Shown here in pieces: positions 2,373-9,858 of a DNA stretch of 11,053 bases (position 1 is its first letter; every line of letters starts with the position of its first letter). Origin of the DNA: Candidatus Hydrothermarchaeales archaeon (GTDB lineage: Archaea; Hydrothermarchaeota; Hydrothermarchaeia; Hydrothermarchaeales; JAZGAD01); assembly GCA_036444275.1 (NCBI GenBank), contig JAZGAD010000049.1, positions 1-11,053 of the forward strand. Direction: 5' to 3'. A program made the position numbers and the translations under genes. A model generated the notes under the pieces. It was not told where the DNA came from and did no database searches. It saw only the letters and a list, made by a program, of their open reading frames with translations.

Positions 2373-2942
2373 ATGAGGTCTGCTGAGATAAAAAGAAAGA
2401 CAAAGGAGACGGAGATAGCAGTTACCCTAAACATCGATGGAGCAGGAGAATACAACATAAACACTGGAATAGCTTTCTTTGATCACTTGCTCTCTAGTTT
2501 TTCAAAGCACGGTTCCTTCAATTTAAAAATAGATGCTAAGGGGGATAACGAGCATCACCTTGTCGAAGACGTCGCTATTTGCTTAGGTAATGCCTTCAGA
2601 GACGCTTTGGGTGATAAGAGAGGTATCGCCAGGTTTGGGCAGGCGGTAATACCTATGGACGATGTCCTGATGCTTGTTTCCATTGATATCAGTGGGAGGA
2701 ACTACTGTGCACTTGACCTCAAGTTAAGAAGGAAGAAGGTAGAGGACTTTAGTGTTGAGATGATCCCCCACTTTCTAGAGAGTTTTACTTCGGAGTTTAA
2801 GATAAATATGCACGCCAAGCTCCTAGATGGTAGAAACGACCACCATAAGACAGAGGCCTTATTCAAGGCACTTGGTATAGCTCTGAGAGGAGCGTGTAGC
2901 GTGGTGGGGAAAGGCATTCCGAGTACAAAGGGTCAACTCTAG
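2373..2942 (+). CDS. hisB: Imidazoleglycerol-phosphate dehydratase
   Basis: RKTKETEI, TGIAFFDHLL, HHLVEDVAI, PMDD, NDHHKTEALFKA and IPSTKG motifs. The probable start is ATG 2373 (MRSAEIKR), not the TTG at 2331. Confidence 0.96.
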   Translation: MRSAEIKRKTKETEIAVTLNIDGAGEYNINTGIAFFDHLLSSFSKHGSFNLKIDAKGDNEHHLVEDVAICLGNAFRDALGDKRGIARFGQAVIPMDDVLMLVSIDISGRNYCALDLKLRRKKVEDFSVEMIPHFLESFTSEFKINMHAKLLDGRNDHHKTEALFKALGIALRGACSVVGKGIPSTKGQL

Positions 2943-3038
2943 ACACATTTTTGCATCGCTCCGGGACTGATTACTTTTCACGTGCTCTCGGACAAAGCAT
3001 ATAGTGTATAAAAGACTCTTTTGTTTTAGGTGACAAAA

Positions 3039-3281
3039 ATGGAGATAGAATTGCATTGTGTAATGTGCGGCGGAACCTTGACGAGGGAGGAGGGCTCGGC
3101 AATGTGCGTCCTCTGCGGTGCCGAGTATCCCGCTATACTAGTCTCAGAGAGTATTCCTTTTGACGAGGATCTTGCTACTGAGATGAGCATTAGCATGGAT
3201 TGCATCTTACTAAGACCAAAACAAGAGAGGGTTGTGCCCTTCGAGATAGAGAGCCCGCTGGAAGAACTTATTGTTGTTTAA
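3039..3281 (+). CDS. Small zinc-ribbon protein (CxxC-x12-CxxC) with an acidic C-terminus, function unknown
   Basis: MEIELHCVMCGGTLTREEGSAMCVLCGAEYP... It has an SD AGGTGA at 3028-3033 and a TATA-like GTATAAAA at about 3007-3014. Confidence 0.7.
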   Translation: MEIELHCVMCGGTLTREEGSAMCVLCGAEYPAILVSESIPFDEDLATEMSISMDCILLRPKQERVVPFEIESPLEELIVV

Positions 3282-3282
3282 G

Positions 3283-3327
3283 GGGAGCGAAAGCTTTAGT
3301 AACCCTAGGGTTATTCCTTCCGCTCCC
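3283..3327. repeat. Inverted repeat / stem-loop (possible terminator, sRNA or mobile-element end)
   Basis: Outer arms GGGAGCG (3283-3289) and CGCTCCC (3321-3327) enclose a perfect 14-bp palindrome TAACCCTAGGGTTA (3300-3313). A pyrimidine-rich tract follows. Confidence 0.6.
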
Positions 3328-3386
3328 TCTTACCCCCCTTCAACATTGGAAGAAACACTTATCAGCGGTTCTAGCACGAAATTCGA

Positions 3387-3403
3387 AGATTATTTATATT
3401 AAC
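3387..3403 (+). promoter_or_regulatory. Putative BRE/TATA promoter of the radical SAM - TcmP operon
   Basis: AAGATTATTTATATTAA lies about 45-60 nt upstream of the TTG start at 3447. Confidence 0.45.
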
Positions 3404-3446
3404 CCGGAGTAAAATTGTCATAAATTATACTACTGGGGGGAAAAAC

Positions 3447-4394
3447 TTGTCAATCAGATATAAGGAGTACGTCGATTTAAAAGGAGAAAAAAAGAGACTA
3501 ATTGAGAGAGTACAAGACGGCTCGATTATAGTTAGATTTGATAAGACCCCCAATCCTAAACATAAAAATGATGTAGTCTGCCCTCATTTTTTGGAATTGA
3601 AATGGGGCTATGGATGTCCTTATAGTTGCGCATGGTGCTACTTGCAAGGCACCTATAGATGGCCGCAATTCAAAAAACACGGTAGCAATATTGATCCTGT
3701 AATAAAAAACGAAAAGAAAATAGAGAAACATCTTAAAATCATTTCTCAAAATGGGCATAAAGAAATTCTTAACGCTGGTGAGCTCGCTGATTCCCTAATG
3801 CTTAATTGGCTTCCCAGATTCTTACTAAATACACCATTAGGCGGGAATAAAGTTCTCTTCGTATCCAAAAGCGACCATGTTGACTTTCTTGTCGAAAACA
3901 AGGAGCGATTAAAAGAAAAAATCGTAATATCTTTCACACTGAATGCTGTCCCAGTAGCTGATAAGTGGGAAAGAGGTGCTCCTAAAGTATCTAAGCGAAT
4001 AAAAGCCGCAGAACATGTTTCAGAAGCAGGATATACCGTGAGAATTAGGATTGATCCAATGGTTCCGATTCATAAGTGGGAGGACCATTATAAACAATTG
4101 ATTGACGACATTTTTGAAAAATTTACTCCTGAGAGGATTACACTTGGATCACTTAGAGGCCTCCAGTCCACGATAAATCAAGCAAGAGATAAATCATGGG
4201 TCACCTTTATGAAGGAGAAATCGAATTGGGGGAAAAAGATCCCAATTGATACCAGATTGAAGTTATATTCAAAAATTATGAACTATCTTATGTCAAGATA
4301 TAACTATTCACATCTAGCGTTTTGCAAAGAAACAGTAGAAATATGGAATAGACTAGGCCTTGATTATAAAGAAATAAGTTGCAATTGCATTTGA
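3447..4394 (+). CDS. Spore photoproduct lyase (SplB)-like radical SAM protein
   Basis: CxxxCxxC motif GCPYSCAWCYLQ, plus NAGELADS, LFVSKS, ISFTLN, E.GAP....RI.AA....AGY.V...IDP, ITLGSLR and FCKET..IW, the pattern of SPL-family radical SAM proteins. TTG start after a G-run SD. Confidence 0.85.
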   Translation: MSIRYKEYVDLKGEKKRLIERVQDGSIIVRFDKTPNPKHKNDVVCPHFLELKWGYGCPYSCAWCYLQGTYRWPQFKKHGSNIDPVIKNEKKIEKHLKIISQNGHKEILNAGELADSLMLNWLPRFLLNTPLGGNKVLFVSKSDHVDFLVENKERLKEKIVISFTLNAVPVADKWERGAPKVSKRIKAAEHVSEAGYTVRIRIDPMVPIHKWEDHYKQLIDDIFEKFTPERITLGSLRGLQSTINQARDKSWVTFMKEKSNWGKKIPIDTRLKLYSKIMNYLMSRYNYSHLAFCKETVEIWNRLGLDYKEISCNCI

Positions 4395-4416
4395 ATCATC
4401 TTTAGGTGGGAAGGAA

Positions 4417-5382
4417 ATTCCAAGAGGAAAAATAATTAGCAATGAAGAATTCTTTGATAAACGAATTGATTTCTTTTTCGAAAAGGGAAAGGAGTTATTC
4501 AATCGCTGCCCAGGGGTGGTAGATGAATACAACGATCATTCTTTGTTGAAACTGATCGCAATCACCTACTGGATTGGCATATTCTCACCGATTAGTCACA
4601 AGCAATTAAAACAAAAGTATGGTTATGATGTTGTTTACGTTGACACAATGGCGGGGAGTGGAATTACTAAAACTCAACGGGAGGGGGACTATTTATGCGG
4701 GAGTTTCCCAAGCGCCTCTTTGCGAGCAGCGGATTTAGGATGTCCGTTTGATAGATTAATTGGAGTTGAAATCAAATCAGAGAAAGCTACTATAGTGAAA
4801 GAGCGTCTCAAATCATTAAACTTTGATAAAGAAGTTAAGATTTTTGATAAGGATATTTTGGAAGTTTCGGGGGATGTAGTTAATTATATCGGAAGTCTGT
4901 CTGTTTCCTATATCGTAATCGATCCCCAAGCGTTCAAGGGGATGACTTGGGCTGCAATCGGCCCCCTCTTGAAGTGTAAGGGTGACGCTATGGTAACGTG
5001 GTTCGAACAGGAAGCTTGGAGGATGAAAGAGGCCGCTTTATCTAATGCAAGATCAGCACAGGGAAATGCAGATAGACTTGATGAATTATTAGGAACCAAT
5101 TGGAGAACAGCAAATAAACCAGAAGATCTTACCCATCTATTCACACAACGGATTCTAAATGAGACTCAAAAAGTAGCTACAGAAAGTATACTCATTGAAG
5201 ATATTTTGGGTAAACATTACAAAATGATATTGTTTGTTGGAAAGTCTAAACGGGCAAAGCATCTAGCAATGGAATGGAAAAAATATATGGATAAATATCT
5301 GGGATCTGATAAAGGTAGAAATATTTCAAGATTACTAGATATTAAAGCAAGAAGACAATCCGACCTTAAGGATTACTTGTAG
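4417..5382 (+). CDS. tcmP: Three-Cys-motif partner protein (TcmP)-like SAM-dependent methyltransferase-fold protein with a C-terminal PIP-box-like motif
   Basis: HSLLKL..I.YW, YVDTMAGSG (motif I), GS, FDRLIGVE, VIDP (motif IV-like), W..I..L, LDELLG..W and HYKMILF. The ORF track starts it at GTG 4516, but the frame is open from 4378 and an SD AGGTG (4404-4408) precedes an in-frame ATT at 4417. The start position is an inference. Confidence 0.75.
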   Translation: MPRGKIISNEEFFDKRIDFFFEKGKELFNRCPGVVDEYNDHSLLKLIAITYWIGIFSPISHKQLKQKYGYDVVYVDTMAGSGITKTQREGDYLCGSFPSASLRAADLGCPFDRLIGVEIKSEKATIVKERLKSLNFDKEVKIFDKDILEVSGDVVNYIGSLSVSYIVIDPQAFKGMTWAAIGPLLKCKGDAMVTWFEQEAWRMKEAALSNARSAQGNADRLDELLGTNWRTANKPEDLTHLFTQRILNETQKVATESILIEDILGKHYKMILFVGKSKRAKHLAMEWKKYMDKYLGSDKGRNISRLLDIKARRQSDLKDYL

Positions 5383-5386
5383 AGGG

Positions 5387-5398
5387 AAAATTTTATAG
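5387..5398 (+). promoter_or_regulatory. Putative BRE/TATA promoter for the cdc6 cluster
   Basis: GAAAATTTTATA lies about 25-30 nt upstream of the cdc6 ATG, followed by an SD-like GGGAG. Confidence 0.5.
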
Positions 5399-5420
5399 GG
5401 ACTTTACTTAAGGGAGAGTC

Positions 5421-6539
5421 ATGGGGCAGAAAATAAGGGATATGCTAATGTATGAGGAGACTCTTTTCAGAGACGAGCGGGCCTTTGATAGAGACTACAT
5501 ACCCAAGGATTTCAACTTTCGAGACACCCAATTGAGAGAGATAGCCCTATGTCTCAAACCAGGGATACGGGGAGAACGTCCCTTAAACGCCAGTATCATA
5601 GGGCCTCCAGCTACCGGGAAGACTACTGCGGTAAAACTGATGTTTGACGAGATCCAGAAGATGACCGATAAGGTAACATGTGTCCATATAAACTGCCAAA
5701 TCCATCCTGCTAAATTCACTATCTTTTCTCATATGCACAAAGCGGTGCTGGGCCATACACCTCCTGAAACTGGGGTCCCATTTACTAAAGTTTATGAGAG
5801 CATTTTCAAGAAGCTCGCGAGGGATGGGAAGAGCTTGGTCGTAGCCCTCGATGACTTGAATTACCTATTCTATGAGAACAAGGCCAATGAGATAATCTAC
5901 GATATACTCAGAGCCCATGAAGTCTTTCCCGGAGCTAGAACAGCGGTATTCGGAGTCCTGTCTGATGTGAGCTTCGATTATAAACTAGAAGCCAAGGTAT
6001 CCTCTATCTTCAAGCCTAGAGAGATATTTTTCCAGCCGTACACCCCGAAAGAGATAATTGACATTCTGAGGGATAGGTCCAAGTTGGGGTTCTTCCCTGG
6101 TGTGATCTCAGATAAAGTTTTGGAAGCGGTGGCAGACTACGCATTTGAACACGCGGATCTACGTGTAGGCATAGAAGTTCTAAGGATCAGCGCTCTAATT
6201 GCCGAATCTGATGCGTCGAGGACAATCAAAATTAGACACATGGAGAAGGCATACAGCAAGTCTAAGTCCCGGAATTTGAAGTCCCTACTCTCTTCCCTGA
6301 ACAAGGAGGAAATGGAGCTGGTTAATGCATTGACAAAAGGAGAGACGAACTCTGGCGAGTTATACGGGCTTCTAAAGGAGAAGATGTCGAGCTATTCTAG
6401 ATTTTATAGAGCCCTGGATAAATTGGAATCTATGAAACTAATAGATACTACGCCCTTGAAGAAGGGGAGGCGAGGTAGGAGTAGGCGGATCGCCCTGCGC
6501 TACACCGAAAAAGAGGTCTCGAAGGCACTGGCGACATGA
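5421..6539 (+). CDS. cdc6: ORC1-type DNA replication initiator protein Cdc6/Orc1
   Basis: DYIP....RD.Q, Walker A GPPATGKTT, VHINC, Walker B VVALDDLNYL, F.PYT..EI.DIL..R, sensor-2-like DLRVGI and a C-terminal winged helix with the GRRGRSR wing. Confidence 0.95.
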   Translation: MGQKIRDMLMYEETLFRDERAFDRDYIPKDFNFRDTQLREIALCLKPGIRGERPLNASIIGPPATGKTTAVKLMFDEIQKMTDKVTCVHINCQIHPAKFTIFSHMHKAVLGHTPPETGVPFTKVYESIFKKLARDGKSLVVALDDLNYLFYENKANEIIYDILRAHEVFPGARTAVFGVLSDVSFDYKLEAKVSSIFKPREIFFQPYTPKEIIDILRDRSKLGFFPGVISDKVLEAVADYAFEHADLRVGIEVLRISALIAESDASRTIKIRHMEKAYSKSKSRNLKSLLSSLNKEEMELVNALTKGETNSGELYGLLKEKMSSYSRFYRALDKLESMKLIDTTPLKKGRRGRSRRIALRYTEKEVSKALAT

Positions 6540-8757: not shown

Positions 8758-9238
8758 GCTCCTGAGAAAACAGGGGTGTTCTGAGGATATAATCCAACAC
8801 TGCCTAGCTGTTTCTAATAACGCATTAAAGATAGTGGATAAGGTCAATATTCCAGTAAATAGGGATCTAATTGAGATCGGAGCCATTCTTCATGATATAG
8901 GCAGGTGCAGAACGCAGGGTATAGATCATGTCACTGTTGGGGGGGAGATTGCTAGGCAGCTAGGCCTGCCAGAAGAAATAGCCAGGATAATAGAGCGCCA
9001 CATTGGAGCTGGGATCATTGCTGAAGAGGCTAGAGTTCTGGGCTTGCCACCAAGGGACTACATACCCATAACTCCTGAGGAGAAGATCGTCTCTTATGCC
9101 GATAACCTTACTATAGGCCTACGAATGTCAAGCTTCGAGGAGAGCCTAGAGAGGTTCAAGAGGCTCTTAGGAGAGGGGCATCCAGCTGTGGCGAGATTCC
9201 AGAGTATGCACCACGAGCTACAAGACTGGATTAATTAA
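8714..9238 (+). CDS. HD-domain metal-dependent phosphohydrolase (TIGR00295-like)
   Basis: IIQHC..V, GAILHDIGR, DH...GG, IIERHIGAGI and EEKIVSYADNL. A usual neighbour of tfe; it overlaps the 3' end of tfe, so the start is uncertain. Confidence 0.9.
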   Translation: MKRRSSVLKKRFAIELLRKQGCSEDIIQHCLAVSNNALKIVDKVNIPVNRDLIEIGAILHDIGRCRTQGIDHVTVGGEIARQLGLPEEIARIIERHIGAGIIAEEARVLGLPPRDYIPITPEEKIVSYADNLTIGLRMSSFEESLERFKRLLGEGHPAVARFQSMHHELQDWIN

Positions 9239-9735
9239 TAAATAGTAACCTTTTTTACCCCCTCTATTTTACGAAGTTCATTAATGAGTTCTCCTGGTAT
9301 TTCGCCCTCAGTTATCACCGTCAGCTCAGGACTCTCAAGTAGATAGGGATCCTCGGCTAGGGCCTGGCGTATTGATATCCTGTGCTCCGCTATTCTGCTG
9401 GTAATACTTCCAATTATTCCAGGCTTAGAGGCGTCGTCAGCAGTAATCACGATAACATTCAAGCCCATAGCTGGTGCTGATTCTCTGAGGAAAGCTATGG
9501 GCTGGAGTTTTGAATATACTTCCCCCAGTTTCTTGTTCTCTAGAATCCGTGTTGTCGTTGCATCTACAACCCTCCGGTCTACCCCAAGCTCCTTTGCTAT
9601 CTGGGTATGAGGGATCTCCAGCTTGCCACACAATACTTTTCCATTTTTGATACGCAGTCCCCTCCTAAGCAGTAAGATAGCCACTCTCTTCTGGGCCGGG
9701 AACTTCTTGAAATATGTTTCTAGTTCACTCCACAT
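9235..9735 (-). CDS. ACT-domain protein with an N-terminal HTH-like region (predicted regulator of amino acid metabolism, COG2150 type)
   Basis: MW..L..YF..FPAQ.RVA..LL..GL, IAKELGVDRRVV and a C-terminal ACT fold (PGIIGSITSRIAEHRISIRQ...EDP...LRKIEGVKKVTIY). Confidence 0.88.
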   Translation of the reverse strand: MWSELETYFKKFPAQKRVAILLLRRGLRIKNGKVLCGKLEIPHTQIAKELGVDRRVVDATTTRILENKKLGEVYSKLQPIAFLRESAPAMGLNVIVITADDASKPGIIGSITSRIAEHRISIRQALAEDPYLLESPELTVITEGEIPGELINELRKIEGVKKVTIY

Positions 9736-9784
9736 CTCATCCTACCCGTGCTTTTCATTTCACCATGCGGCTTAAGCGATTGAA

Positions 9785-9858
9785 TGGGCCCGCCGGGATT
9801 TGAACCCGGGTTATAAGGTCCGCAACCTTATGTCCTATCCAGGCTAGACTACGAGCCC
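9785..9858 (-). tRNA. tRNA-Arg (anticodon GCG), intronless, CCA not encoded
   Basis: Minus strand reads GGGCTCG-TA-GTCT-AGCCTGGATA-GGAC-A-TAAGG-TTGCGGA-CCTTA-TAAC-CCGGG-TTCAAAT-CCCGG-CGGGCCC-A. This gives a full cloverleaf with A20, the arginine identity element. Confidence 0.96.

Follow-up and report, generated by a model that had tools for sequence, protein, structure and literature searches.

A spore photoproduct lyase-like radical SAM protein paired with or fused to a TcmP-like methyltransferase: a candidate DNA-modifying module of anaerobic bacteria and archaea

We analysed a stretch of DNA of 11,053 nucleotides (nt), hereafter referred to as the window, from Candidatus Hydrothermarchaeales archaeon (contig JAZGAD010000049.1); all positions are those of the whole window on its forward strand. 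The window contains a two-gene module in which gene 1 codes for a radical S-adenosylmethionine (SAM) protein resembling spore photoproduct lyase (SPL), and gene 2 for a TcmP-like protein with the fold of a class I SAM methyltransferase (Table 1). An initial annotation, made from the sequence alone, had described two co-oriented and closely spaced genes here, and both were found at the positions it gave. The stop codon of gene 1 (TGA, 4392-4394) is separated by 22 nt from the ATT codon at 4417 that appears to start gene 2.

The gene 1 protein matches the Pfam family PF20903 (SPL) with 60.1 bits at a cut-off of 27, and has 1664 database relatives of similar length. The three cysteines of its C57-x3-C61-x2-C64 motif are each present in 314 of 315 family sequences, and the tyrosine following the third cysteine (Y65) is kept in 300 of the 315. 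SPL is also the best sequence match of the protein (E 2.4e-8). The structural model is of moderate confidence (predicted local distance difference test score, pLDDT, 74.9); SPL chains occupy the first six places among its solved fold matches (E 1.7e-10 to 9e-10, template modelling (TM) score about 0.55), the next match follows at E 8e-5, and the peptide-modifying enzymes SuiB and anSME are found below the SPL rows. The description of gene 1 as an SPL-like radical SAM protein with a CxxxCxxC motif is thus borne out by the PF20903 match and by the SPL fold matches.

As a candidate, a true SPL was rejected on three grounds. The protein scores 65.2 bits on TIGR04070, the equivalog model of SPL, versus a cut-off of 400. 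Moreover, the residue aligned to the hydrogen-donor position of SPL, which we take to be C140 of the Geobacillus enzyme and which we located through the C140S chain in the alignment, is not a cysteine; because there is no cysteine between residues 65 and 292 of the gene 1 protein (P0001), a hydrogen-donor cysteine of the SPL type is impossible in it. Finally, the protein has four extra cysteines, C45, C293, C312 and C314, each of them present in 314 of the 315 family sequences. Their invariance suggests that they may form a second metal or Fe-S site. That repair of spore photoproduct would be an unlikely role had been anticipated, and the TIGR04070 score and the missing donor agree with this.

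For the gene 2 protein, no match was found in Pfam. It aligns to positions 2-252 of the 263 positions of the NCBIfam model TIGR04474 (TcmP) with 42.3 bits (42.6 bits in a genome-wide search), and because this is under the cut-off of 53, we refer to the protein as TcmP-like and regard it as a member of a divergent sister subfamily. Its AlphaFold2 model (pLDDT 88.9) has a class I SAM methyltransferase fold. K52, the motif I residues D83, G87 and G89, and D176-P177 of motif IV are kept in 73-75 of 81 TcmP-family sequences, with R209 also among the best-kept positions; because motifs I and IV are conserved, SAM binding and catalysis are probably retained. The protein has 50 relatives in the databases searched. 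In the ESM Atlas, all 30 nearest clusters are TcmP clusters (scores up to 0.95), and the Atlas model of the protein superposes on TcmP clusters with a TM score of 0.77; moreover, it superposes with a TM score of 0.75 on the TcmP part of a 678-amino acid (aa) cluster, 98% of whose members carry PF20903. The expectation of a TcmP-like protein with a Rossmann methyltransferase fold is therefore confirmed by fold, motifs and Atlas clusters, together with the TIGR04474 alignment below cut-off.

The fold of gene 2 is less informative about the reaction. A search of its profile against the sequences of solved structures gave nothing significant (best E 0.091), and Foldseek by itself singled out no methyltransferase subfamily. 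VIA re-ranking placed Trm1, RlmJ and TrmR at the top, yet within 2 Z units of many O-methyltransferases, and for this reason the fold leaves the methylated atom unfixed. The nearest named Atlas clusters outside TcmP are of the RlmJ type (scores 0.82-0.84), which we treat as a lead only.

The reading frame of gene 2 is open from 4396 to 5382, its first ATG, GTG or TTG codon is the GTG at 4516, and no canonical start codon is present between the upstream stop and that position. Homologues of 320-337 aa span 95-99% of the read-through translation, and in the homologue alignment the full-length proteins start with MPRG.../MPKG... exactly at the I-P-R-G of the window, i.e. at the ATT codon 4417-4419; one homologue, P0015, likewise has an isoleucine at this position. 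Because the N termini of the homologues align there and the tract AGGTGGGAAGGA lies just 5' of it, these comparisons support ATT 4417 as the putative start and, with it, the spacing of 22 nt, both of which had been proposed initially. A truncated protein beginning at GTG 4516 is a possible alternative. We also considered that the ATT might mark a decayed gene; however, the conservation of the N-terminal 33 residues and the Shine-Dalgarno-like tract speak against this. In a Methanomicrobiaceae locus (L004), the GCDHGCTYCY motif of the radical SAM gene (6948 to about 7700, reverse strand) is found 5' of the first ATG, GTG or TTG in frame, suggesting either another non-canonical start or a broken gene, similar to the ATT of the window and the isoleucine of P0015.

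The two genes are linked well beyond the window. A search for the TcmP-like protein in species-representative genomes gave six loci, from Halobacteriota, Methanobacteriota, Methanomicrobiaceae, two Thermoplasmata and an Izemoplasmatales bacterium. In four of the six, a close homologue of the radical SAM protein (44-48% identity) is encoded directly upstream on the same strand, and in the remaining two a different CxxxCxxC radical SAM gene adjoins. A metagenome scan with the radical SAM protein gave at least 570 confirmed encoding stretches, the best 80 of which were examined using a TcmP profile iterated on these loci. In 32 of the 80 loci, both parts are encoded in a single open reading frame (ORF) of about 630-720 aa, with TcmP N-terminal and radical SAM C-terminal; in another 32, a separate TcmP gene lies within 1.2 kb of the radical SAM gene (16 upstream and 9 downstream on the same strand, 7 convergent). 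TcmP was not detected in 16 loci. In 13 of these, a flank is shorter than 1.2 kb on one or both sides or the locus runs past the contig end, which leaves L050, L056 and L060 as the only informative absences. Before iteration, the profile detected 24 fusions and 24 neighbours.

Three of the fusions were checked against NCBIfam and scored 169-211 bits on TIGR04474 together with an SPL match; in two of the three, a GMT-like winged helix-turn-helix domain (PF22560) is found between the two halves. Consistently, a search for long relatives of the radical SAM protein gave 433 database proteins of at least 553 aa; each of the 120 listed has a length of 600-743 aa, and several of them are named TcmP by NCBI. 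Because fusions are abundant and adjacency is conserved, we conclude that the two proteins work together, and the sequence comparisons support the TcmP and radical SAM genes as a functional pair, as had been proposed before these genomes and metagenomes were compared.

Two expectations of the initial annotation were not sustained. The SPL-type partner is not exceptional, since members of this radical SAM clade are generally accompanied by TcmP (64 of 80 loci). Similarly, TcmP had been expected to occur usually with a DUF5131/PF07505 protein; in the phylum of the window, TIGR04474 is found at seven places in 6 of 38 genomes, and all seven copies adjoin a three-Cys protein, five of them beside the SPL-like clade, one beside a Gp37/Gp68-type protein (34-37% identity to phage and plasmid examples) and one beside a third radical SAM type. 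The TcmP-like protein itself is present in 3 of 41 relatives. One genome, G036, encodes three close copies of the radical SAM protein (C8, C16 and C26), two of which have TcmP adjoining and the third of which runs off its contig end.

Variant arrangements were also observed. In six loci (L028, L030, L040, L065, L080 and L085), two tandem SPL-like radical SAM paralogues are followed by a convergent TcmP gene, the second paralogue having been checked against family libraries in L028 and L080, and in L041 a second SPL-like gene lies at the contig end. In a Thermoplasmata locus (L006, 5941-6941), the TcmP-like gene is split over two overlapping frames, either as a frameshifted pseudogene or through an assembly error.

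The window pair is inserted between genes that are close together in relatives. Upstream lie hisB and a small ORF, and downstream lie orc1/cdc6, a gene labelled SPOUT-like methyltransferase from a reading of its translation alone with no family search, and further genes. Of 21 related genomes, 20 had a cdc6 orthologue, and ten regions around it (L121-L130) were compared. In six of these (L122, L123, L124, L127, L128 and L129) the small ORF is located about 150-350 nt upstream of cdc6; in L126, hisB abuts cdc6; and in L125 and L130 neither the small ORF nor hisB is upstream of cdc6. In the window, by contrast, the small ORF and cdc6 are separated by 2.1 kb, and in G004 (L121, contig C55) the same site is filled over 2981-5172 by 2.2 kb of unrelated cargo with ORFs of 285, 76 and 119 aa. 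The site between hisB and cdc6 is therefore variable, being empty in relatives, filled in the window and carrying other cargo in G004, and it looks like an insertion hotspot beside a presumed origin.

The base composition agrees with an insertion: the GC content of the two-gene module is 0.374 versus 0.451 and 0.457 in the flanks, that of the whole segment 3282-5420 is 0.377, and genes 1 and 2 (0.366 and 0.381) have the lowest values of 14 genes measured, the 12 flanking genes having 0.415-0.491. Neither direct nor inverted repeats were detected on either side of the insert when 2900-5500 was searched, and we therefore do not name a mechanism of integration. With the site empty in relatives and the GC content low, the initial description of a pair inserted among housekeeping genes holds, and a horizontally acquired, mobile operon is the best reading of these data. 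The small ORF, at 83 aa, is 36-43% identical in six relatives, where it occupies the same place by cdc6, and may be part of a replication-origin region.

Table 1. Features of the module and its surroundings in the window
Feature	Position	Strand	Remarks
SPL-like radical SAM gene (gene 1)	3447-4394	+	TTG start, 315 aa, C57/C61/C64 and invariant C45, C293, C312, C314
TcmP-like class I SAM methyltransferase-fold gene (gene 2)	4417-5382	+	321 aa from ATT 4417; 288 aa from GTG 4516
Shine-Dalgarno-like AGGTGGGAAGGA	4404-4415	+	5' of the ATT start; read from sequence alone
AT-rich tract with two TATA-like elements (3390-3401, 3420-3429)	3390-3429	+	read from sequence alone
G-run	3435-3440	+	between the TATA-like tract and the TTG start of gene 1
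Inserted segment	3282-5420		between the conserved small ORF (3030-3281) and orc1/cdc6 (5421-6539)

Next to the module, restriction-modification genes are found repeatedly. BLAST clustering of 605 non-overlapping ORFs from 97 loci gave no third gene conserved with the pair; the commonest neighbour family is RadC (8 loci), and type I HsdM and Eco57I-like type IIG proteins are found in 5 loci each. In L056, L060 and L075, RadC is upstream. Among the 140 nearest neighbour genes (E<=1e-10), 8 match MADS mad2, 5 type I methylase, 4 type I specificity and 4 type IIG models, and up to 6 match single type II methylase models, all of these being counts from overlapping sets taken with no baseline. Individual loci show closer contacts. 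In L034, L039 and L087, genes of about 1070 aa with an N6-methylase domain overlap the start of the fusion gene. In L060 (2858-6942), a radical SAM gene without TcmP directly follows type II restriction-modification genes, namely an N6_N4 methylase, BsaWI and a second N6_N4 methylase, and in L056 (5294-6942) another such gene directly follows a type II gene fragment that is BglII-like. In G004, the radical SAM gene adjoins the gene for an HTH-NucS_C protein. Altogether, these neighbours are suggestive of a link between the module and restriction-modification. In L004, a 250-aa ORF (9076-9828, forward strand) about 2 kb downstream of the TcmP-like gene had no Pfam match.

The TcmP half is also found on mobile elements, namely in 110 plasmid records and 8 Gordonia phage records. 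In the Gordonia phage ThankyouJordi, TcmP lies between the immunity repressor and the integrase and is convergent with a Gp37/Gp68 gene, whereas genes of these two kinds are divergently arranged on a Mycolicibacterium plasmid. On the Halopiger xanaduensis plasmid pHALXA02 (L098, 2353-6143), TcmP follows a radical SAM gene and is flanked by two paralogous CxxxCxxC radical SAM genes, one of them divergent and the other co-directional; the host is a cultured haloarchaeon, and a ThiF-family gene is present 2 kb downstream. The available text of PMC12445080 lists a Sinorhizobium TcmP gene next to the defence gene Hna.

Because the module carries a winged helix-turn-helix domain in fusions, is related to SPL through its radical SAM half, is mobile and has restriction-modification neighbours, we infer a DNA substrate and a role in conflict with foreign DNA; the order of steps, the chemistry and the biological role are put forward as proposals. 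The pair would modify a DNA base cooperatively, by polar SAM chemistry and then by radical chemistry, yielding a mark for self/non-self discrimination, for a restriction-modification partner, or for defence or anti-restriction. We regard this reading as evenly poised between right and wrong. The window pair would represent the split form of a bifunctional enzyme widespread in anaerobic bacteria and archaea, the two parts of which would act together on one flipped-out DNA base. The TcmP part would perform the polar chemistry, most simply a methyl transfer, and the radical SAM part would remove a hydrogen from that base, or from its new substituent, by means of a 5'-deoxyadenosyl radical that it generates. 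The product would be a covalent DNA mark that distinguishes self from non-self, either as the partner of a restriction-modification system or as a defence or anti-restriction module in its own right. The initial proposal of DNA modification or defence stands as the reading that best fits the context; the DNA substrate, the sequential action and the defence phenotype it included are carried forward as proposals.

Several observations weigh against cooperative modification of a DNA base. The literature searched describes no modified base, activity or phenotype for any family member. Most neighbours of the module are unrelated housekeeping genes, even the commonest neighbour family is limited to 8 loci, and the restriction-modification counts, given the way they were taken, do not show enrichment. 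The nearest solved folds of gene 2 are all RNA methyltransferases, with Trm1 and RlmJ, which methylate exocyclic amines, at the head, its TIGR04474 score is below the cut-off, and a scan of viral contigs with the TcmP-like alignment found no relative. In PADLOC, gene 2 matches the candidate component PDC-M41A weakly and partially (E 1.5e-6, residues 72-197), and gene 1 matches no candidate component, including the PDC B models. Moreover, a Pfam scan detected no winged helix-turn-helix domain in the window pair. Finally, G004, a genome that is 100% complete, encodes a close homologue of the radical SAM protein and has no TIGR04474 match.

Among the alternatives, modification of RNA survives best. 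Many radical SAM enzymes act on RNA, and the pair could carry out a complex tRNA or rRNA modification in which a methyltransferase step is combined with a radical one, similar to the wybutosine or ms2i6A pathways. Structurally, gene 2 matches best to Trm1 (tRNA m2,2G26), RlmJ (23S m6A2030) and TrmR, which points in this direction, as does the lead from the RlmJ-type Atlas clusters. However, the distribution of the module is patchy (TcmP-like protein in 3 of 41 relatives, TIGR04474 in 6 of 38 phylum genomes), the pair is inserted at a variable site, and up to three copies occur in one genome. Moreover, plasmids and the lysogeny modules of prophages carry TcmP, the neighbours include restriction-modification genes, and the radical SAM half has a DNA-acting enzyme as its nearest relative. 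We therefore consider an RNA substrate unlikely.

If the substrate is DNA, the two activities might still oppose each other: the radical SAM protein would damage unmarked foreign DNA through its radical chemistry, and methylation by TcmP would protect the DNA of the host. Two activities without a nuclease, located in or beside restriction-modification loci, would fit such an arrangement; type IIG enzymes provide a precedent for the fusion of restriction with methylation, and catalogued defence candidates include the related TcmP/Gp37-Gp68 pairs. On the other hand, radical SAM genes without TcmP (L050, L056, L060 and G004) argue against a toxic effector in need of an antidote, and fusion into one chain in 32 of 80 loci fits cooperative catalysis at one site at least equally well. 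An antagonistic pair thus appears quite improbable to us.

A third possibility is DNA repair, in which the radical SAM protein would reverse a lesion other than spore photoproduct, e.g. a crosslink or an alkylation adduct, with TcmP as a lesion-binding or accessory subunit. This would agree with the sequence and fold matches to SPL, with RadC near the module in 8 loci, and with proposals for related proteins: according to the parts of these papers available, archaeal SplB-like proteins may repair other crosslinks (PMC4929162), and there is a link between SplB-like enzymes and SOS and repair operons (PMC3765255). By contrast, the hydrogen-donor cysteine of SPL is missing, the catalytic methyltransferase motifs of TcmP are conserved, no repair genes are conserved nearby, and the distribution is sporadic with the look of a mobile element, all of which makes repair very unlikely. 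Least probable of all is a peptide, protein or small metabolite as the substrate: SuiB and anSME come next after the SPL rows and the class I methyltransferase fold is generic, but there are no conserved precursor-peptide, transporter or biosynthetic genes nearby, the fusions contain a winged helix-turn-helix domain, and the neighbourhoods contain restriction-modification genes.

Returning to cooperative modification of DNA, the association of TcmP with a three-Cys protein is already known, as an annotation name and as two PADLOC candidates. In the literature searched, mostly without subscription journals and supplements, we found no description of an SPL-like partner, of fusions of TcmP, winged helix-turn-helix and radical SAM domains, or of the seven-cysteine signature, and no functional study of TcmP or its radical SAM partners, both of which appear in annotation-level mentions only. 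The available text of PMC8989533 names only two radical SAM enzymes acting on DNA, namely SPL and one phage hypermodification enzyme. It is possible, and we suggest it tentatively, that the module, split or fused, represents an unrecognised class of cellular DNA-modifying enzyme that combines polar SAM-dependent transfer with a 5'-deoxyadenosyl radical and possibly a second Fe-S cluster bound by the four invariant cysteines, and that installs a non-canonical base as an epigenetic immunity mark beside restriction-modification in anaerobic bacteria and archaea.

With at least 570 encoding stretches in metagenomes and 433 long database proteins, the family is large. A DNA mark of this kind would involve DNA chemistry of a new type and add a new layer to self/non-self discrimination in anaerobes and archaea; it would also provide a function for the unexplained TcmP/three-Cys pairs, including PDC-M30 and PDC-M41, and would partly explain why organisms that form no spores encode SplB-like proteins, a long-standing puzzle. 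The fusion proteins are handy single-polypeptide targets for biochemistry, and the cultured Halopiger xanaduensis could serve as an experimental organism.

Several known systems resemble a single half of the module. RlmJ (23S rRNA m6A2030) and Trm1 (tRNA m2,2G26) share only 11-14% identity with the gene 2 protein and are solo housekeeping enzymes, whereas the gene 2 protein is tied to an obligate radical SAM partner. The available text of PMC8989533 describes gp53 of Pseudomonas phage M6 as a radical SAM enzyme of thymidine hypermodification whose substrate is a DNA base that already carries a modification, and the authors present it as the first enzyme of the radical SAM type found to introduce a modification into DNA; likened here by description only, gp53 differs from the window pair in being a phage enzyme of a multi-step 5-hydroxymethyl-dU pathway and in having no TcmP partner. 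The archaeal SplB-like proteins encoded beside NreB, as described in the part of PMC4929162 available, are, like the gene 1 protein, SPL-like radical SAM proteins with an unknown substrate and a conserved neighbour gene; in this comparison, also by description only, they differ in that their partner is NreB, a PCNA-associated protein and not a methyltransferase. SplB itself (TIGR04070; PDB 4FHC and related structures) shares with the gene 1 protein the CxxxCxxC core and the tyrosine after the third cysteine, and is its best match in sequence and fold. Unlike SplB, the gene 1 protein has no hydrogen-donor cysteine, has C45, C293, C312 and C314, and has an obligate methyltransferase partner, and its archaeal host forms no spores.

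The pairs of TcmP with Gp37/Gp68 (PF07505/DUF5131) resemble the module as a whole. Canonical TcmP proteins match PDC-M30A and PDC-M41A of PADLOC, and Gp37/Gp68 proteins match PDC-M30B and PDC-M41B, the composition of both systems having been inferred from the names of the hidden Markov models; according to the available text of preprint 10.1101/2024.01.29.577857, PDC systems are phage-defence candidates found embedded in known defence systems and are themselves untested. The window pair does not show the matches to both A and B that membership of PDC-M30 or PDC-M41 entails. Its partner protein is SPL-like with 315 aa and seven invariant cysteines, unlike the Gp37/Gp68 proteins of about 250 aa, and its TcmP-like protein belongs to a divergent subfamily under the TIGR04474 cut-off. 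In both cases, however, a TcmP protein with a methyltransferase fold adjoins a three-Cys protein of the radical SAM type, and both occur on mobile elements and in restriction-modification contexts. Moreover, RadicalSAM.org, in the available part of its description (PMC9477430), places DUF5131 and SPL together in megacluster 5.

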